NCBI GenBank assembly: GCA_046350035.1
Contig: JAXMBD010000014.1
Location: 53,077 to 117,076, forward strand
Length of the DNA stretch: 64,000 nucleotides
From: Isosphaeraceae bacterium
GTDB lineage: Bacteria; Planctomycetota; Planctomycetia; Isosphaerales; Isosphaeraceae
Direction: 5' to 3'
Shown here: one piece after another, positions 19,873 to 26,328 of the stretch
Numbering within the stretch: position 1 is the first letter of the stretch
How the letters are laid out: each line of letters starts with the position of its first letter
Program-made: the position numbers and the translations under genes
Notes under the pieces: generated by a model
Told to the model about the DNA's origin: nothing
Database searches by the model: none
What the model saw: only the letters and a program-made list of their open reading frames with translations

Positions 19873-21462
19873 TCAAGCCCTCGGGAAGGCCTCGCCCAGG
19901 GCGCCCATGAGCTGGTCGAAATCGACCGGCTTGGTCAAGTGCCGGGCGAAGCCGGCGTCCCTGGCGAGCTGCCGGTCCCTGTCCTGCCCGTAGCCGGTCA
20001 GGGCGATGAGCGTCGGGGGAGGGCCGTCGGAGTCCCGGCCGATCAACCGCGCCACCTGATAGCCATCCATGCCTGGGAGTCCGATGTCGAGCAGGACGAC
20101 TTTCGGTCGGGCCGACCGGGCCAGGCCCACCGCCGACGGACCATCGAACGCGATGGCGACCTCGTAGCCGCTCAATTCCAGCAACCGTGCCATGCCACGT
20201 GCGGTGTCCACGTTGTCGTCCACCACCAGGATTTTTCTGGGGCCCTGGGCGCGGTCGGCGCCAGGCCGTTCGGGCGCGGCCGTCGCCTCGGTCGTAGGCG
20301 GGGCCACCGCGGGCAACCATACGGTGAACTTGCTGCCGAGGCCGAGGCCTTCGCTCTCGGCCGCGACGCGGCCGCCGTGCATTTCCACCAGCCGCTTCAC
20401 CAGCGTCAGGCCGATACCCAGCCCCCCCTCCGAGCGGGCGAGCGACCGGTCACCCTGGACGAACAGGCCGAAGAGGTTGGCCACCTGCTCCGGGGGGATG
20501 CCGATCCCGTGATCCTCCACTTCGAACCGCAACTGGCCGTCCGCGACGCGTGTCGAAAGCCGGATCCGCCCCCCGTCGTCGGAATACTTCGCGGCGTTCG
20601 TGAGCAGGTTCACCGCCACCTGCTCCAGGCGAGTGGGATCGACGTCGAGGTGGGCCCCGGAGTGGCCGTAATCGAGCTCGAGGCGATGCCGGCGTTCCTG
20701 CACGAGCGGCCCGATCGAGGCCACCGCCCGCTCAAACACCGGGGTCGGGTCGATGACCTGGCGGCGGACCTGGATCTTGCCGTGCATGATCCGCGAGACG
20801 TCGAGCAGGTCGTCGATCAGGCGGCCGAAGGTCTTCGTCTGATTCTCGATGACCTGCCTGGCCCACTCCTGGTTCTCTCGCAGGGGGCTCCGTTTCCATA
20901 CCTCGATGGCGCCCGACACGGCCGAGAGCGGGTTCCGCAACTCGTGGGCGAGCATGGCAAGGAATTCGTCCTTGAGCCGGTCGGCCTCCTGGAGTGCCCG
21001 GGCATATCGGCGGCTCTCCTCGAGCAGGCGGGCGTTCTCGCAGAGGGCCTGCTTCAACTCCTCGCGATGGCGGGCCAGTTCGAAGAAGACCTGGGCCTTG
21101 CTGCGGAGGATGTCGGGCTCGATCGGCTTGCCCAGGAAATCGACGGCGCCGGCCTCGTAGCCCCGGAACCGACGCTTCTGGTCGGCATTGCCGGCGGTCA
21201 GGAAGATGATCGGCACGCGGCGAGTCCGCTCGGTGCCGCGCATCAGCTCGGCCAGCTCGAAGCCGTTCATCTCCGGCATCTGCACGTCGATCAGGGACAG
21301 GGCGACTTCATGCTCCAGGAGCAGTTCCAGAGCTTCGGGTCCGGACCTCGCCCTGAGGAGGGACAGGCCGTCTCTGCGGAGTAGCGCCTCCAGCGACAGG
21401 AGGTTCTCCTCGAGGTCGTCAACGAGCAGGAAGTGGATCGGTTCGGGCGGCTTCGTGGTCAT
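19873..21462 (-). CDS. hybrid histidine kinase, REC-HisKA-HATPase-REC
   Basis: 'HFLLVDDLEENLLSL...DVQMPEMNG', H-box 'FLAMLAHELRNPL', 'GGLGIGLTLVKRLVEMHGG', second REC 'KILVVDDNVDTARGM...DIGLPGMDG'. Confidence 0.9.
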   Translation of the reverse strand: MTTKPPEPIHFLLVDDLEENLLSLEALLRRDGLSLLRARSGPEALELLLEHEVALSLIDVQMPEMNGFELAELMRGTERTRRVPIIFLTAGNADQKRRFRGYEAGAVDFLGKPIEPDILRSKAQVFFELARHREELKQALCENARLLEESRRYARALQEADRLKDEFLAMLAHELRNPLSAVSGAIEVWKRSPLRENQEWARQVIENQTKTFGRLIDDLLDVSRIMHGKIQVRRQVIDPTPVFERAVASIGPLVQERRHRLELDYGHSGAHLDVDPTRLEQVAVNLLTNAAKYSDDGGRIRLSTRVADGQLRFEVEDHGIGIPPEQVANLFGLFVQGDRSLARSEGGLGIGLTLVKRLVEMHGGRVAAESEGLGLGSKFTVWLPAVAPPTTEATAAPERPGADRAQGPRKILVVDDNVDTARGMARLLELSGYEVAIAFDGPSAVGLARSARPKVVLLDIGLPGMDGYQVARLIGRDSDGPPPTLIALTGYGQDRDRQLARDAGFARHLTKPVDFDQLMGALGEAFPRA

Positions 21463-22037
21463 GACTCTGTCACGATAGCAAGAAGGTAATCGGCAATCTC
21501 CCCGAGTTCCAACGACCGAGCCCCGGGGCAGGCGTCGAGGGCGGCCGTTGGCATGGCCGGCGACAAGGCCTTGTCGGGTCGCTGAACCAGAGCGGTACCC
21601 CCGCGATCGACGATGGCCTTCAGCCCGCGCGCCCCGTCGCTGTTAGCCCCGGTGAGGACGATCCCGACGAGCCCCACCCCGTAAGCCTCGGCGGCCGTCT
21701 CGAGAAGGACGTCGATCGATGGCCGGGAAAACAGGACCGGCTCGTCGGCGGACAGGGAGAGGCGGCGATCGGGCTCGACGAGGAGGTGGTAATCGGGCGG
21801 TGCCAGGTACACGGTGGCCGGCTCGATCGGCTCCTTATCCTGGGCCTCCCGGACCGACACACGGCACTTCCTCCGCAGGAGATCGGCCAGGAAACTCTCC
21901 TTGTCGGCCGGGATGTGGACCACCACGAAAACCGGCAGGGGATAGTCGGCAGGCAGGCTGGGGAGGATCGCCGACAGGGCTTCGAACGCCCCGGCCGACG
22001 CGCCGATCGCGACCGCCTCCGTGGTGGAGAGGGTCAT
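21459..22037 (-). CDS. cheB: CheB-type protein-glutamate methylesterase, catalytic domain only
   Basis: 'AIGASAGAFEAL', 'VFVVVHIP', 'VLTGANSDGARG'. 192 aa, with no N-terminal REC domain. ATGA overlaps at both ends. Confidence 0.88.
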   Translation of the reverse strand: MTLSTTEAVAIGASAGAFEALSAILPSLPADYPLPVFVVVHIPADKESFLADLLRRKCRVSVREAQDKEPIEPATVYLAPPDYHLLVEPDRRLSLSADEPVLFSRPSIDVLLETAAEAYGVGLVGIVLTGANSDGARGLKAIVDRGGTALVQRPDKALSPAMPTAALDACPGARSLELGEIADYLLAIVTES

Positions 22038-22861
22038 CGGTCCCCCCGCCTCTGATAGATCCGGTGCTCCGGCGAGAACTCGGCGAAATTCGCGGAATGC
22101 GCCGAGAAGCGGAGCGACTCCTTGGCGCCCAGGCCCAGGAAACCCTTACGCGACAACGAGTCCCGGAACAGGCCGATGGCCCGATCCTGGAGTTCCCGGT
22201 CGAAGTAGATCAGGACATTCCGGCAGGAGATGAACTGGACCTCGGCGAAGACCTGGTCGGTGACGAGGCTGTGGTCGGAGAACACCACGCGGGATCGGAG
22301 GCTCCGGTCGAAAACGGCCGAGCCGTAGGCAGCGGTGTAGTAGTCGGAGAGGGACGACCGGCCTCCCGACTTCCGGTGGTTCTCGGTGAACAGGGCCAGT
22401 CGCCCTATGTCGTAGACGCCGGCCTCGGCCTTCACCAGGGCTTCGGGGCTGATATCGGTCCCGTACAGGATCGTACGCTCCTCGAGGCCCTCCTCGCGGA
22501 GCAGGATCGCCCACGAATAGACTTCCTCGCCGGCGCCACAACCGGCGACCCAGATTTTCAAGGAAGGGTAAGTCTTTAGGTGCGGCACCACTTCCTGGCG
22601 GATTGCCCGGAAATAGCCCGGGTCGCGGAAGAGTTCGCTAACCTGCACCGTCATGTAGGACAGCAGCACGGGGAAGGCCGTGGGGTCGTGTAGGGCCCGA
22701 TCCTGGACCTGCGAGAACGAGGCGCAGCCGAGTCGCTCTCGGGCCTGCAAGAGCCGCCGTCGGAGCGAGGCGACCGAGTAGCCCCTGAAGTCATAGTGGA
22801 ACTTCCGGTAGATCGCCTCCAGCAGCAGCTTGAACTCGATCTCCTCGGCGCGGTTCACCAC
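22034..22861 (-). CDS. cheR: CheR-type protein-glutamate O-methyltransferase
   Basis: 'FKLLLEAIYRKFHYDFRGYS', 'ELFRDPGYF', SAM motif 'KIWVAGCGAGEEVYS', 'FISCRNVLIYF'. GTG at 22861 follows GGAGG by 5 nt. Confidence 0.88.
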   Translation of the reverse strand: MVNRAEEIEFKLLLEAIYRKFHYDFRGYSVASLRRRLLQARERLGCASFSQVQDRALHDPTAFPVLLSYMTVQVSELFRDPGYFRAIRQEVVPHLKTYPSLKIWVAGCGAGEEVYSWAILLREEGLEERTILYGTDISPEALVKAEAGVYDIGRLALFTENHRKSGGRSSLSDYYTAAYGSAVFDRSLRSRVVFSDHSLVTDQVFAEVQFISCRNVLIYFDRELQDRAIGLFRDSLSRKGFLGLGAKESLRFSAHSANFAEFSPEHRIYQRRGDR

Positions 22862-22890: not shown

Positions 22891-25800
22891 TCACCTCGGC
22901 ATCCAGACGCGGACGAGCGAGAGAAGCTTCTCGACGTCCAGGGGCTTGGCCATATAGTCGTTGGCGCCGGCGTCGAGGCATTGCTCCTGGTCATCCCGCA
23001 TCGCCTTCGCGGTGAGCATCAGGATCGGCAGCTTCTTCCACGCGGGGCGGCTGCGGATGGCTCGGGTGGCCGCAAGGCCGTCCATCTCGGGCATCATGAC
23101 GTCCATCAGCACCAGATCGATCCGCTTGGCGGGGTCATCCCCGGCTTGTTCCAGGGCCTCGATCGCTTCCTTACCATTGCGGGCGATCCGGACGGATGCC
23201 CCGCGGGGCTCCAGGAGGCTCGTCAGTGCGAACACGTTCCGCACGTCGTCCTCGACGACGAGGATCCGCTTGCCTTCGAGCGCCGCATCCCGGCTCCGGG
23301 CAACCTCGAGCATCTTCTGATGCTCGGGTGGCAACTCCGAGACGACCTGATGGAGGAAGAGCGTCACCTCGTCAAGCAGGCGCTCGGGCGACTTGGCGCC
23401 CTTGATGATGATCGATCGGGAATGGCGGCGGAGTCGCTGCTCCTCTTCGGCGGACAGCTCCCGGCCGGTGTACACGATGGCCGGCGGGAAGGAATAGGCG
23501 TCCTCTCGGCTGAGCGTCTCCAGGAGCGTGTAGCCGGATGCGTCGGGCAGCGACAGGTCGAGCACCATGCAGTCGAATGTCTCGGAGCTAAGCCGCTCCA
23601 GGCACTCGGCGGCCGTACCCGCCCCGATGGTCTCGACAGCGAGCGAACCGAGCAGGATCCGCAGGCTCTCGAGCTGGAGGGGATCATCTTCGACGACCAG
23701 TATCCGGCGCATCCTCCGGGCCCATCGCTTCTCCAAACCGCCGATGGCCCGGGCCAGATCGTCGCGTTTCACCGGCTTGAGCAGGTAACCGACGGCGCCC
23801 AGCGACAGGGCCATCCCGGCGTGGTCGCTGGCCGAGACGACGTGGACGGGGATATGCCGTGTCCGGGCGTCCTGCTTGAGTCGATCGAGGACCGACAGGC
23901 CCGATTCGTCGGGCAGTCCGATGTCGAGCACGATGGCGCTGGGGAGATGGCGGATCGCCATCCCCAGCCCCTCTTGCGCGGTCGAGGCGACCAGGCACTG
24001 CAGATGTTGTTCGCGCGCCATGTCGTAGAGGATCCGTGCGAACTCCGGATCGTCCTCCACGACGAGGATTGCATGGGCGTCCCCGCGGAGTTTATCGCGG
24101 TCATCCTCGAAGAATCTCGGCCGGGTCGTCGCGGGGAGGGGCGGCGTCGGCGAGGGGGGCGGCTCGGCGGCCTGGGCCGGTGCGGCCATCTTGGCTTCGT
24201 CACGGGCTCGCACGAGGACCGGGTCGTATGCCTCCGGGATAGTGAGCGTGAAGATGCTGCCGCGGCCCGGTTCGCTTTCCAATCCGATCGAGCCGCCCAG
24301 CAACCTCGCCAGCTCGCGCGAGATCGACAGGCCGAGCCCGGTGCCCCCGTATTTCCGGCTCGTCGTCCCGTCGGCCTGGTGGAATGCCTCGAAGATGGCC
24401 TCCTGCTGATCGACGGCAATCCCGATCCCGCTATCCTGCACCGCGAACGCGACCCTACCGTCGTCGGCGCGTCGGACCTCGGTGACTACCCCCCCGCGTT
24501 CGGTGAACTTGATCGCGTTCGAGAGCAAATTCTTGAGGATCTGTTCGAGCCGCTGGCGATCGGTCTCGATCCGCTCGGGGCAACCGGGGGCGATCCCGGT
24601 CGAGAACGCAAGCCCTTTCTGGCTTGCGACCTGATCAAACGTCCGCGACAAGTCCTGAAGGAAGTCGACGATCCGCACCGGCTCCGCGCGGACCTCCATC
24701 CGGCCGGCCTCGATCTTCGACAGGTCGAGGATGTCGTTGATCAGGTTCAGCAGGTCGTTTCCCGACGACTGGATCGCCCTCGCGAACCTGACCTGCTCAT
24801 CCGTCAGGTTCCCCTGCGGATTGTCCGCGAGGAGCTTGGCCAGGATCAGCGACGAGTTGAGCGGCGTCCGCAACTCGTGCGACATGTTGGCCAGGAAATC
24901 GCTCTTGTACCGGCTGGCCTGCTCGAGTTCGCGGGCCTTGAGTTCCAGCGAGGCTTGCGAACGGCCGAGGTCGTCCCGCTGCCTGGCGAGGAGGTTCGCG
25001 TGTTCCTCCAGCTGGAAATTGCTCTGCTCCAATTCGACCTGTTGAAGCTCCAGCCTGGACTGCGACTCCTTCAGAATACGCCCCTGTTCCTCGAGTTCCT
25101 CGTTCGAGACCCGCAGTTCTTCCCCTTGAGCCTGGAGTTCTTCGGCCTGCCGTTGCGTCTCCTCCAGCAGTCCCTGGAGTGCAACCCGATTCTTGGCGGC
25201 CTTCACGGCCCGGGCGATGAAGTCCGAGGTCGAAGCTAGCAACCGTTCGGTCAGGTCGGCGCCCTTCTTGAGGTGGCCCAACTCAAGGATTCCCATCACC
25301 TCCCCATCAACCGACAGGGGGGCAACCACGAGATGGCCTGGCGCGGCGCGTCCGAGCCCCGAGCCGATCGTCAGGTAATCGGCCGGGGGGTCGGACAGTA
25401 CGAACGTGCGGAGATCCTTCGCCGCCTGCCAGAGCAGGCCGTCGCCATCCCGGATGCGCGTGGGGACGGTCCCGTTGGAAGGAACTCCATAGGTGGCCGC
25501 TCTCTCAAACCCGCTGCCCGCCTCGACGAAGAAGGCCCCCGCATGCGCATCGAGGTATTCGGCGAGGAACTTCAGGACGTTGTCGCCGACCTGCCCCGGT
25601 GACTGGTCGCCGGCCAGGGCGGTACTCAGCCCCACGGCCCCCGTTTGGAGCCACTCGCGTTGCCGCTGGGACAAGGCCGAACGCCTCGCGAAGTATCCGT
25701 TGACCCCGGCCAGGGTCACGCCGAGCAGGGTGGTCAGGGCGGCGCTCCCGACCGCAACCCGGAAAGCCGTCGACATTTCCGCCAGGCTGTCGGCCCGCCG

Positions 25801-26328
25801 CCGCAATTCCAAATCCTCAATCTCGCGGACGCGGAGCCGAATGGCGTCCATCGCCTCCTTACCGCGATCGGTCAAGACCAGGGACCGAGCAGCCTCGAAG
25901 CCTTCTGCCCGCCGGACCCCGATGGTATCCGCCAGTTCCGCGAGCTTGACGTCCACAAACTCCCTCAGCTGGAGCACACGCTCGCTGGCGATCGGCGAAT
26001 CCTGCACGAGCGTCGCTAACTCGTCGAGGCGGGAATCGATGCGGGCCAGGGAAAGATGATAAGTTCCGAGATAGCGGTCCTCGCCAGTGATGAGGAACCC
26101 CCGCTGGCCGGTCTCGGCGTCTTTCAGCGTCGACAGGAACTCATCGACCTTGGCGAGCGTGTCGTGTGTACGGGTGGCCTGCCCCACGTCGTAGAGGATC
26201 TTGCGCAAATTCACGTACGAAATCAGGCCGCTTACGAGGAAGAACACCAGCAGGGCGACGAACCCCAAAGTGAGCGAGGCAGGCAGGTCGGCCGCCGGGG
26301 ATCCGCGACCCGCGTTCGAATCCGGCAT
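22891..26328 (-). CDS. CHASE3-TM-GAF-coiled coil-HisKA-HATPase-3xREC hybrid sensor kinase
   Basis: CHASE3-like 'LKDAETGQRGFLITGEDRYLGTY', TM 'AALTTLLGVTLAGVNGYF', H-box '[13 protein letters not shown]', '[14 protein letters not shown]'. Three REC domains ('ILVVEDDPEFARIL', 'ILVVEDDPLQLESL', 'ILVVEDDVRNVFAL'). Confidence 0.9.
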   Translation of the reverse strand: MPDSNAGRGSPAADLPASLTLGFVALLVFFLVSGLISYVNLRKILYDVGQATRTHDTLAKVDEFLSTLKDAETGQRGFLITGEDRYLGTYHLSLARIDSRLDELATLVQDSPIASERVLQLREFVDVKLAELADTIGVRRAEGFEAARSLVLTDRGKEAMDAIRLRVREIEDLELRRRADSLAEMSTAFRVAVGSAALTTLLGVTLAGVNGYFARRSALSQRQREWLQTGAVGLSTALAGDQSPGQVGDNVLKFLAEYLDAHAGAFFVEAGSGFERAATYGVPSNGTVPTRIRDGDGLLWQAAKDLRTFVLSDPPADYLTIGSGLGRAAPGHLVVAPLSVDGEVMGILELGHLKKGADLTERLLASTSDFIARAVKAAKNRVALQGLLEETQRQAEELQAQGEELRVSNEELEEQGRILKESQSRLELQQVELEQSNFQLEEHANLLARQRDDLGRSQASLELKARELEQASRYKSDFLANMSHELRTPLNSSLILAKLLADNPQGNLTDEQVRFARAIQSSGNDLLNLINDILDLSKIEAGRMEVRAEPVRIVDFLQDLSRTFDQVASQKGLAFSTGIAPGCPERIETDRQRLEQILKNLLSNAIKFTERGGVVTEVRRADDGRVAFAVQDSGIGIAVDQQEAIFEAFHQADGTTSRKYGGTGLGLSISRELARLLGGSIGLESEPGRGSIFTLTIPEAYDPVLVRARDEAKMAAPAQAAEPPPSPTPPLPATTRPRFFEDDRDKLRGDAHAILVVEDDPEFARILYDMAREQHLQCLVASTAQEGLGMAIRHLPSAIVLDIGLPDESGLSVLDRLKQDARTRHIPVHVVSASDHAGMALSLGAVGYLLKPVKRDDLARAIGGLEKRWARRMRRILVVEDDPLQLESLRILLGSLAVETIGAGTAAECLERLSSETFDCMVLDLSLPDASGYTLLETLSREDAYSFPPAIVYTGRELSAEEEQRLRRHSRSIIIKGAKSPERLLDEVTLFLHQVVSELPPEHQKMLEVARSRDAALEGKRILVVEDDVRNVFALTSLLEPRGASVRIARNGKEAIEALEQAGDDPAKRIDLVLMDVMMPEMDGLAATRAIRSRPAWKKLPILMLTAKAMRDDQEQCLDAGANDYMAKPLDVEKLLSLVRVWMPR

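Follow-up and report, generated by a model that had tools for sequence, protein, structure and literature searches.

A CheR-linked glutamate ladder in the GAF–HisKA coil of a planctomycete hybrid histidine kinase is a candidate methyl-accepting segment

The DNA analysed here (the window) is a 64,000-nucleotide stretch from the planctomycete Isosphaeraceae bacterium (GenBank assembly GCA_046350035.1, contig JAXMBD010000014.1, positions 53,077 to 117,076), and it encodes a hybrid sensor histidine kinase with a long heptad coil, rich in Glu and Gln, between its GAF and HisKA domains. Within this coil, a ladder of glutamate pairs forms a real, strongly constrained, CheR-linked module that is wired in phase into the dimerization and histidine phosphotransfer (DHp) helix and occurs almost exclusively next to CheR or in fusion with it. 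By sequence, the ladder is not a methylation helix of the type known from methyl-accepting chemotaxis proteins (MCPs). It is nevertheless the best candidate for the segment on which the CheR and CheB of the same operon act, an assignment that we hold to be moderately probable. We also lean slightly towards the wider reading that there is a widespread class of histidine kinases having their own methyl-accepting helix, tuned directly by CheR/CheB on glutamate pairs. Methylation-based adaptation is regarded as a hallmark of chemosensory arrays; the mechanism proposed here would be CheR/CheB adaptation in a new form. The kinase and the parts of its coil are as follows.

22891..26328, minus strand: hybrid sensor histidine kinase, 1145 residues (open reading frame translation and Pfam)
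24904..25188, minus strand: Glu/Gln heptad coil, kinase residues 381-475, between GAF and HisKA (translation, register and AlphaFold2 model)
25081..25164, minus strand: ladder A, residues 389-416, four heptads EE-T/EE-L/EE-L/EE-L (orthologue alignment)
24997..25080, minus strand: ladder B, residues 417-444, with the same Leu register as ladder A (column counts)
24913..24996, minus strand: distal coil, residues 445-472, same register, joining the ladder to the DHp helix (alignment)
24877..24879, minus strand: codon of His484, the predicted phospho-accepting histidine (H-box)

An earlier sequence-only reading had proposed a methyl-accepting segment here, and most of its description of the region was found to be accurate. 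The 92-residue peptide that it quoted is present from residue 381 at the coordinates given, but the gene lies on the minus strand; reading 24904-25188 on the plus strand gives a meaningless translation. The segment does lie between GAF (242-375) and HisKA (475-542) as assigned with Pfam, directly before the H-box with His484, and is poor in helix breakers (no Pro, four Gly) and rich in Glu and Gln (35% versus 12% protein-wide). The heptad-register check that it had called for placed 12 of the 17 Leu residues in a single heptad phase, with the register unbroken. With heptads counted from residue 389, Thr stands at position 3 of the first and Leu at that position of the next eleven. The Glu pairs of ladder A occupy heptad positions 1-2 (389/390, 396/397, 403/404 and 410/411), with an extra pair at 413/414, and from 413 onward pairs stand at positions 4-5: EE 413/414, KE 420/421, EL 427/428, EQ 434/435 and EE 441/442. 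The segment thus carries Glu-Glu and Glu-Gln pairs with seven-residue spacing on a long coiled coil in one register.

Since Glu, Gln and Leu are common in any coiled coil, the pattern could in principle have arisen by chance from the composition, or from recent repetition of the DNA, and serve no specific function. Composition-preserving shuffles of the 95 residues never reached the observed Leu phasing (0 of 200,000), and only 40 of 200,000 contained at least three in-register [EQ]E[LMIVF] units. No tandem repeat was found in the DNA under the coil, so the periodicity exists at the protein level only, and a DNA tandem repeat is ruled out as its origin. Together with a near-empty reversed-pattern control and 84% identity across phyla, both described below, these results refute the explanation by chance, to which we attach practically no probability.

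The conservation of the ladder was measured in 64 full-length kinases encoded upstream of CheR genes that had been chosen solely by similarity to the window's CheR; column counts below are out of 65, these orthologues plus the window. Conservation among homologues ranked by the coil itself was set aside as biased, and the comparison was redone on these CheR-selected loci. Ladder A showed 84% identity to the window (entropy 0.50) and HisKA 82% (0.55), followed by ladder B with 65% (0.92), the distal coil with 48% (1.75), GAF with 40% (1.89) and CHASE3 with 30% (2.27). Ladder A and the H-box are therefore the best-conserved stretches of the kinase, and the orthologous loci having 84% identity in ladder A span several phyla. 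The Glu/Gln pairs, whose lack of conservation would have spoken against the earlier proposal, are kept at fixed heptad positions. T391, E403, E404, L405, R406, N409, E411, L412 and N437 are invariant; E396, E397 and E410 are present in 62-64 of 65 sequences and E434, E441 and E442 in 55-64, and the exposed residues Q394, Q401, V407, Q415, Q429 and Q430 are nearly invariant. Two pair positions alternate between Glu and Gln, namely 414 (E in 50, Q in 10) and 435 (Q in 55, E in 8). This exchange resembles the deamidation sites of chemoreceptors, as far as the alignment goes, and is also a common conservative substitution. Position 428, Leu in the window, is Gln in 26 of 65, so that EQ is the commonest pair there in the orthologues.

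The window's kinase departs from its family at L428 (mostly Q or A), H443 (Q in 62/65) and A448 (E in 58/65), encoded at about 24985-25047. The second half of its ladder is, by these residues, slightly eroded.

The coil was modelled as a monomer with AlphaFold2 using kinase residues 365-560 and 51 aligned sequences. The model shows a single unbroken helix from 366 to 502, including His484, followed by DHp helix 2, with block-mean pLDDT of 93-96 across most of the coil. The predicted helix is straight and without a turn, and no antiparallel hairpin is seen. Leu fills one core position of the heptad, and the other holds polar or small residues, with invariant N409 and N437 and G, S, Q or A elsewhere; heptad geometry accordingly puts the Glu pairs on the probable exposed face. 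About 10 acidic residues per chain fall within 28 residues. His484 lies 88 residues (4 mod 7) past the first Glu of EELQAQG. All 137 kinases of the collected loci that have a ladder at most 200 residues from the H-box likewise show a spacing of 4 mod 7 between the first Glu of the ladder and the H-box His, although this spacing takes the values 46, 53, 60, 67, 81 and 88 residues. The angular offset of the Glu pairs from the phospho-accepting histidine is therefore constant. By architecture and phase, the segment belongs with S-helix linkers, that is, parallel coiled coils running from a sensor domain to DHp in phase with the histidine. One orthologue, from an Asticcacaulis metagenome-assembled genome (MAG; locus L238), carries an insert of exactly one heptad (LQSQSEE) in ladder A relative to all other orthologues, with the register kept.

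Is the ladder equally frequent in kinases that have no CheR nearby, as the earlier proposal could not have survived? Coil-selected, pattern-selected and own-genome data all answered in the negative. A profile of the coil only retrieved 80 loci from Alpha-, Beta- and Gammaproteobacteria, Planctomycetota, Verrucomicrobiota, Myxococcota, Nitrospirota and Armatimonadota. Downstream DNA was available for 76 of them, and CheR came next on the same strand in all 76 and CheB in 71; the four loci without CheR end inside the kinase gene. Because these loci are orthologous operons, they demonstrate conserved synteny and not independent events.

A homology-free search was made with a degenerate DNA pattern for EEL-x4-EEL-x4-EEL in 401 genomes of the window's phylum. 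The pattern matched in 85 genomes, and the reversed-pattern control was nearly empty. Among 60 matches whose neighbourhoods were examined, all but two of the N/Q/S/T-type ladders had a same-strand CheR at a distance of 0.5-2.3 kb, whereas four unrelated acidic repeats had none. Ladder and CheR were found to travel in two arrangements: in CheB-CheR fusions the ladder follows the CheR domain by about 0.6 kb in the same frame, and in kinases a separate CheR gene lies about 0.6-2.3 kb away. The CheR-linked ladders stand behind at least six sensor architectures and in both gene orders; besides the CfcA type, named after the Pseudomonas putida kinase discussed below, the sensors are dCache-HAMP-GAF, HAMP-GAF, sensor-PAS-PAS, poly-HAMP-GAF and TM-ladder-GAF-PAS (TM, transmembrane). 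Two dCache-HAMP-GAF ladder kinases (L088, G186:C109; L135, G143:C248) have CheR upstream and no CheB within the fetched flanks, a methyltransferase-only arrangement unlike that of the window. The two exceptional ladders are L107, which is interrupted by a contig end, and L140, the single clear exception to the link between ladder and CheR. L140 (G025:C53:1-10200 and G025:C12:2-51) encodes a GAF-ladder-HisKA kinase with three receiver domains, its identical ladder appearing at two contig ends.

In the window's own genome (6.35 Mb), such a ladder occurs in 3 of 42,312 open frames. Two of them, the frame of this kinase and that of a CheB-CheR fusion gene on contig C12, are CheR-linked, and the third is probably a chance match. 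Of 32 kinase cores in this genome, 30 lack both a ladder and a CheR in the vicinity; only the two of this operon lie within 5 kb of a CheR. A census of CheR genes in five genomes plus this one found them in the context of either MCP/CheW/CheA or a ladder, never both, with three orphans. In the fusion gene (C12:50620-54544), CheB-CheR is followed by a ladder of the NEELQSTNEEL type and a PAS-like region, after which comes another CheB domain. These parts lie in three frames, which indicates a frameshifted gene or assembly errors.

The genes that follow the kinase supply the enzymes of the proposed mechanism. The earlier reading had taken the next two genes for the modifying enzymes, and Pfam did identify them as CheR and a receiver-less CheB.

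22034..22861, minus strand: CheR-type glutamate methyltransferase, CfcB-like (Pfam CheR_N and CheR, E 2e-34; CheR tree)
21459..22037, minus strand: catalytic domain of a CheB methylesterase/deamidase, 192 residues, receiver-less (Pfam E 1.4e-54)
19873..21462, minus strand: second hybrid kinase, REC-HisKA-HATPase-REC (REC, receiver; Pfam), overlapping the CheB stop

These genes share the strand of the kinase and follow it closely, their ends overlapping or almost touching. The kinase itself contains CHASE3 (50-181), a membrane/linker stretch between CHASE3 and GAF, the GAF and HisKA domains, HATPase_c (590-699) and three C-terminal receiver domains (Pfam). The CheR retains both CheR_N and the S-adenosylmethionine (SAM)-binding domain. 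Its start is most likely GTG 22861, 29 nt from the kinase stop, because alignments to solved CheR structures in the Protein Data Bank (PDB) begin at residues 48-76 of the longer frame. This longest open frame starts at ATG 22981 and overlaps the final 91 nt of the kinase gene. The CheB start overlaps the CheR stop (ATGA), and residues S14, H41 and D134 of the CheB align with Ser164, His190 and Asp286, the catalytic triad of Salmonella CheB (PDB 1A2O), so that the triad is intact. The second kinase is present in 144 of 156 related loci, in which its linker shows 34% identity and the EE residues of the linker are not conserved. It was rejected as an alternative substrate on this ground.

Phylogenetic analysis placed the window's CheR in the CfcB clade with CfcA-type neighbours (support 98-100). 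The CheRs of fusions make up a clade of their own (support 100), and none of the MCP-linked CheRs groups within the one that holds the window's enzyme. The CheRs of other ladder kinases scatter in the tree, where deep nodes are weak. A single clade of all ladder-linked CheRs was thus not supported, and because of this scatter we make no claim of a single origin, which the tree neither proves nor excludes. The window's CheR groups with those of Gemmataceae and Verrucomicrobiota inside a clade otherwise mostly of Proteobacteria, and this mixture of phyla suggests horizontal spread of the whole operon.

Each CheR clade is paired with its own ladder variant, which would also be expected if the ladder were a docking or tethering surface that recruits CheR and CheB, like the C-terminal pentapeptide of Tar and Tsr, with the modified residues elsewhere in the complex. 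The strongly conserved and partly non-acidic surface motif EELRVSNEELEEQ, with its invariant exposed Val and Arg, fits such a surface as well. However, the motif is repeated four to eight times at a heptad spacing typical of multi-site substrates and not of a single dock, the alternation of E and Q at pair positions looks like deamidation sites, and the fused proteins still keep a ladder even though their enzymes are already tethered. A docking role is therefore regarded as quite improbable.

In the mechanism preferred here, the ladder is itself the substrate. Two chains would pair through residues 389-444 into a signalling coiled coil that passes without a break into DHp helix alpha-1, and this coil would be acted on by the CheR and CheB encoded directly downstream. 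CheR would methylate the second Glu of several pairs, with 397, 404, 411, 414 and 442 as candidates, and CheB would demethylate and would also deamidate Gln435 and, in relatives, Gln428. The resulting charge neutralisation may alter how stable this acidic and only marginally stable coil is, or in which register it lies, and thereby shift the kinase/phosphatase balance at His484, with the three-receiver phosphorelay as the presumed output. The outcome would be a slow, reversible memory for the kinase, as methylation provides for chemoreceptors. Since the CheB has no receiver domain, feedback would probably operate through conformation-dependent access to the sites and not through CheB phosphorylation.

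How far does the ladder resemble a chemoreceptor methylation helix? The consensus for MCP methylation is [ASTG][ASTG]-x-x-[EQ][EQ]-x-x-[ASTG][ASTG]. Neither a full nor a half match to it was found in the kinase, and the MCP signalling domain (MCPsignal, PF00015) was not found in the kinase by the Pfam scan. As a positive control, two MCPs of the same genome (C31 cluster) gave 2-3 full matches each, and a third MCP (C3) gave none. The claim that the segment is equivalent to an MCP methylation helix thus stands for the pairs every seven residues on a long coiled coil, but not for the sequence consensus, and the monomer model shows no hairpin. The broader proposal of a methyl-accepting segment fared similarly: the conserved, CheR-linked module in phase with DHp was borne out, whereas the absence of the MCP consensus and the existence of a ladder without CheR count against it.

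These two points are joined by several others that weigh against methylation of the ladder. The monomer model is one long helix and not an MCP-like antiparallel hairpin. The genome has five MCPsignal matches, all on other contigs, so that CheR and CheB could act in trans. The genome containing L140 (G025) is 96% complete and has a GAF-ladder kinase with three EEL heptads, yet no CheR match anywhere; the coil must there have an enzyme-independent function, as would be expected of a primarily signal-transmitting helix. The evidence for the association comes mostly from related, non-independent operons, and the high conservation is equally expected if the coil is simply a critical signalling helix. 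Finally, no methylation data for any member of the family were found in the literature searched, in which methylation of CfcA or of its coil is not discussed.

Several of these observations would be explained if the coil were a signalling helix only, that is, a long linker of the S-helix type whose conservation and phase would follow from the mechanical link between GAF and DHp. The target of CheR and CheB would then be another one: a receiver of the kinase, the operon's other hybrid kinase, some downstream regulator, or chemoreceptors from other loci. The missing MCP consensus, the persistence of a ladder kinase in the CheR-free G025 and the five MCPsignal matches agree with this explanation, and any rigid linker is expected to show a fixed heptad phase to the histidine. 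CheR is also reported to methylate the response regulator PhoP (PMC8546571), and the kinase has three receivers. On the other hand, the ladder is the one element common to all non-MCP CheR contexts examined, which include fusions, unrelated sensors and varying receiver numbers, and its exposed residues are invariant, not the core positions alone. As for the other targets, the linker of the second kinase is poorly conserved, and two of the chemosensory clusters of the genome carry enzyme matches of their own (CheB and CheR in C31, CheB and a CheR fragment in C17), while MCP-linked CheRs lie outside the clade of the window's CheR. The P. putida homologues, moreover, have no role in chemotaxis (PMC4951495). 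Overall, we consider a purely mechanical helix unlikely, though it is the alternative that deserves to be taken most seriously.

If the ladder is methylated as proposed, ordinary two-component sensors could adapt to a background stimulus without chemoreceptors, CheA or CheW, and the dose-response and memory of such sensors would be interpreted differently. Methylation of the ladder would also identify a so far unreported substrate of CfcB/CfcC-type enzymes. The operon family occurs in many phyla, and its Pseudomonas members control c-di-GMP and biofilm. The analysis yields a short list of candidate residues (E397, E404, E411, E414, Q435 and E442) together with a structural rationale, since the angle between the candidate sites and the phospho-accepting histidine is fixed.

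Which known systems does the locus resemble? By architecture, gene order and Pseudomonas loci of the same family, it is a probable orthologue of the genetically known Pseudomonas cfcABCDE/bmsA operon: a kinase with CHASE3 and GAF, HisKA/HATPase and C-terminal receivers is followed by cheR, cheB and a second kinase. In P. putida KT2440, the CHASE3/GAF hybrid kinase CfcA is encoded by the first of the five genes cfcABCDE, in which cfcB is a cheR and cfcC a cheB (PMC4951495; PMC6849547). CfcA is required for the diguanylate cyclase regulator CfcR, which it "very likely" phosphorylates, and a chemotaxis role of CfcB and CfcC "has been ruled out" (PMC4951495). No report of a substrate of the Pseudomonas CfcB/CfcC enzymes was found in the literature searched. 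The window shares with the cfc cluster the CHASE3/GAF hybrid kinase architecture and the gene order, and differs in its host, a planctomycete. Loci from a Pseudomonas MAG (L059) and from Halopseudomonas (L041) show 71-74% coil identity and the same synteny, and belong to the same family as the window. A related Pseudomonas cluster has a second hybrid kinase after CheB (PMC8175716). BmsA of P. alkylphenolica, a sensor hybrid kinase with CHASE3 and GAF, influences biofilm and motility and is called orthologous to a Pseudomonas gene beside CheR, CheB and hybrid kinase genes (PMC8175716, citing Lee et al. 2016). BmsA is known from genetics only. An in silico paper on A. tumefaciens mentions CHASE3 solely as a chemoreceptor ligand-binding domain.

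Salmonella CheR is reported to methylate the response regulator PhoP at acidic pairs (PMC8546571). The PhoP case is a precedent in that CheR modifies consecutive acidic residues of a two-component protein; it differs in that the substrate is a receiver/DNA-binding protein and not a kinase coil, and the enzyme is a chemotaxis CheR with a second target. The CheB-CheR fusions, with their N-E-E-L-Q-S-T runs, share with the window the EE-L heptad unit, a polar Asn core position and the constant company of CheR. Their ladder is part of the CheB-CheR polypeptide itself, about 190 residues past its CheR domain and distant from any H-box, whereas the window has separate genes, and it matches the half-consensus [EQ][EQ]xx[small][small], which the window's ladder does not.

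The adaptation helices of Tar and Tsr are the classical counterpart. The likenesses are 1) Glu-Glu and Glu-Gln pairs every seven residues, 2) a long coiled coil controlling a histidine kinase, 3) a dedicated CheR and CheB encoded alongside, and 4) alternation of E and Q at pair positions among relatives. The differences are 1) a CheB without a receiver domain, 2) the lack of the small-residue consensus and of an MCP signalling domain, 3) a hydrophobic position that directly follows the pair here (EE-L) and closes the heptad in MCPs, and 4) the arrangement of the coil, which is predicted to be one parallel-type helix fused to its own DHp here, whereas the MCP is a hairpin controlling a separate CheA via CheW.

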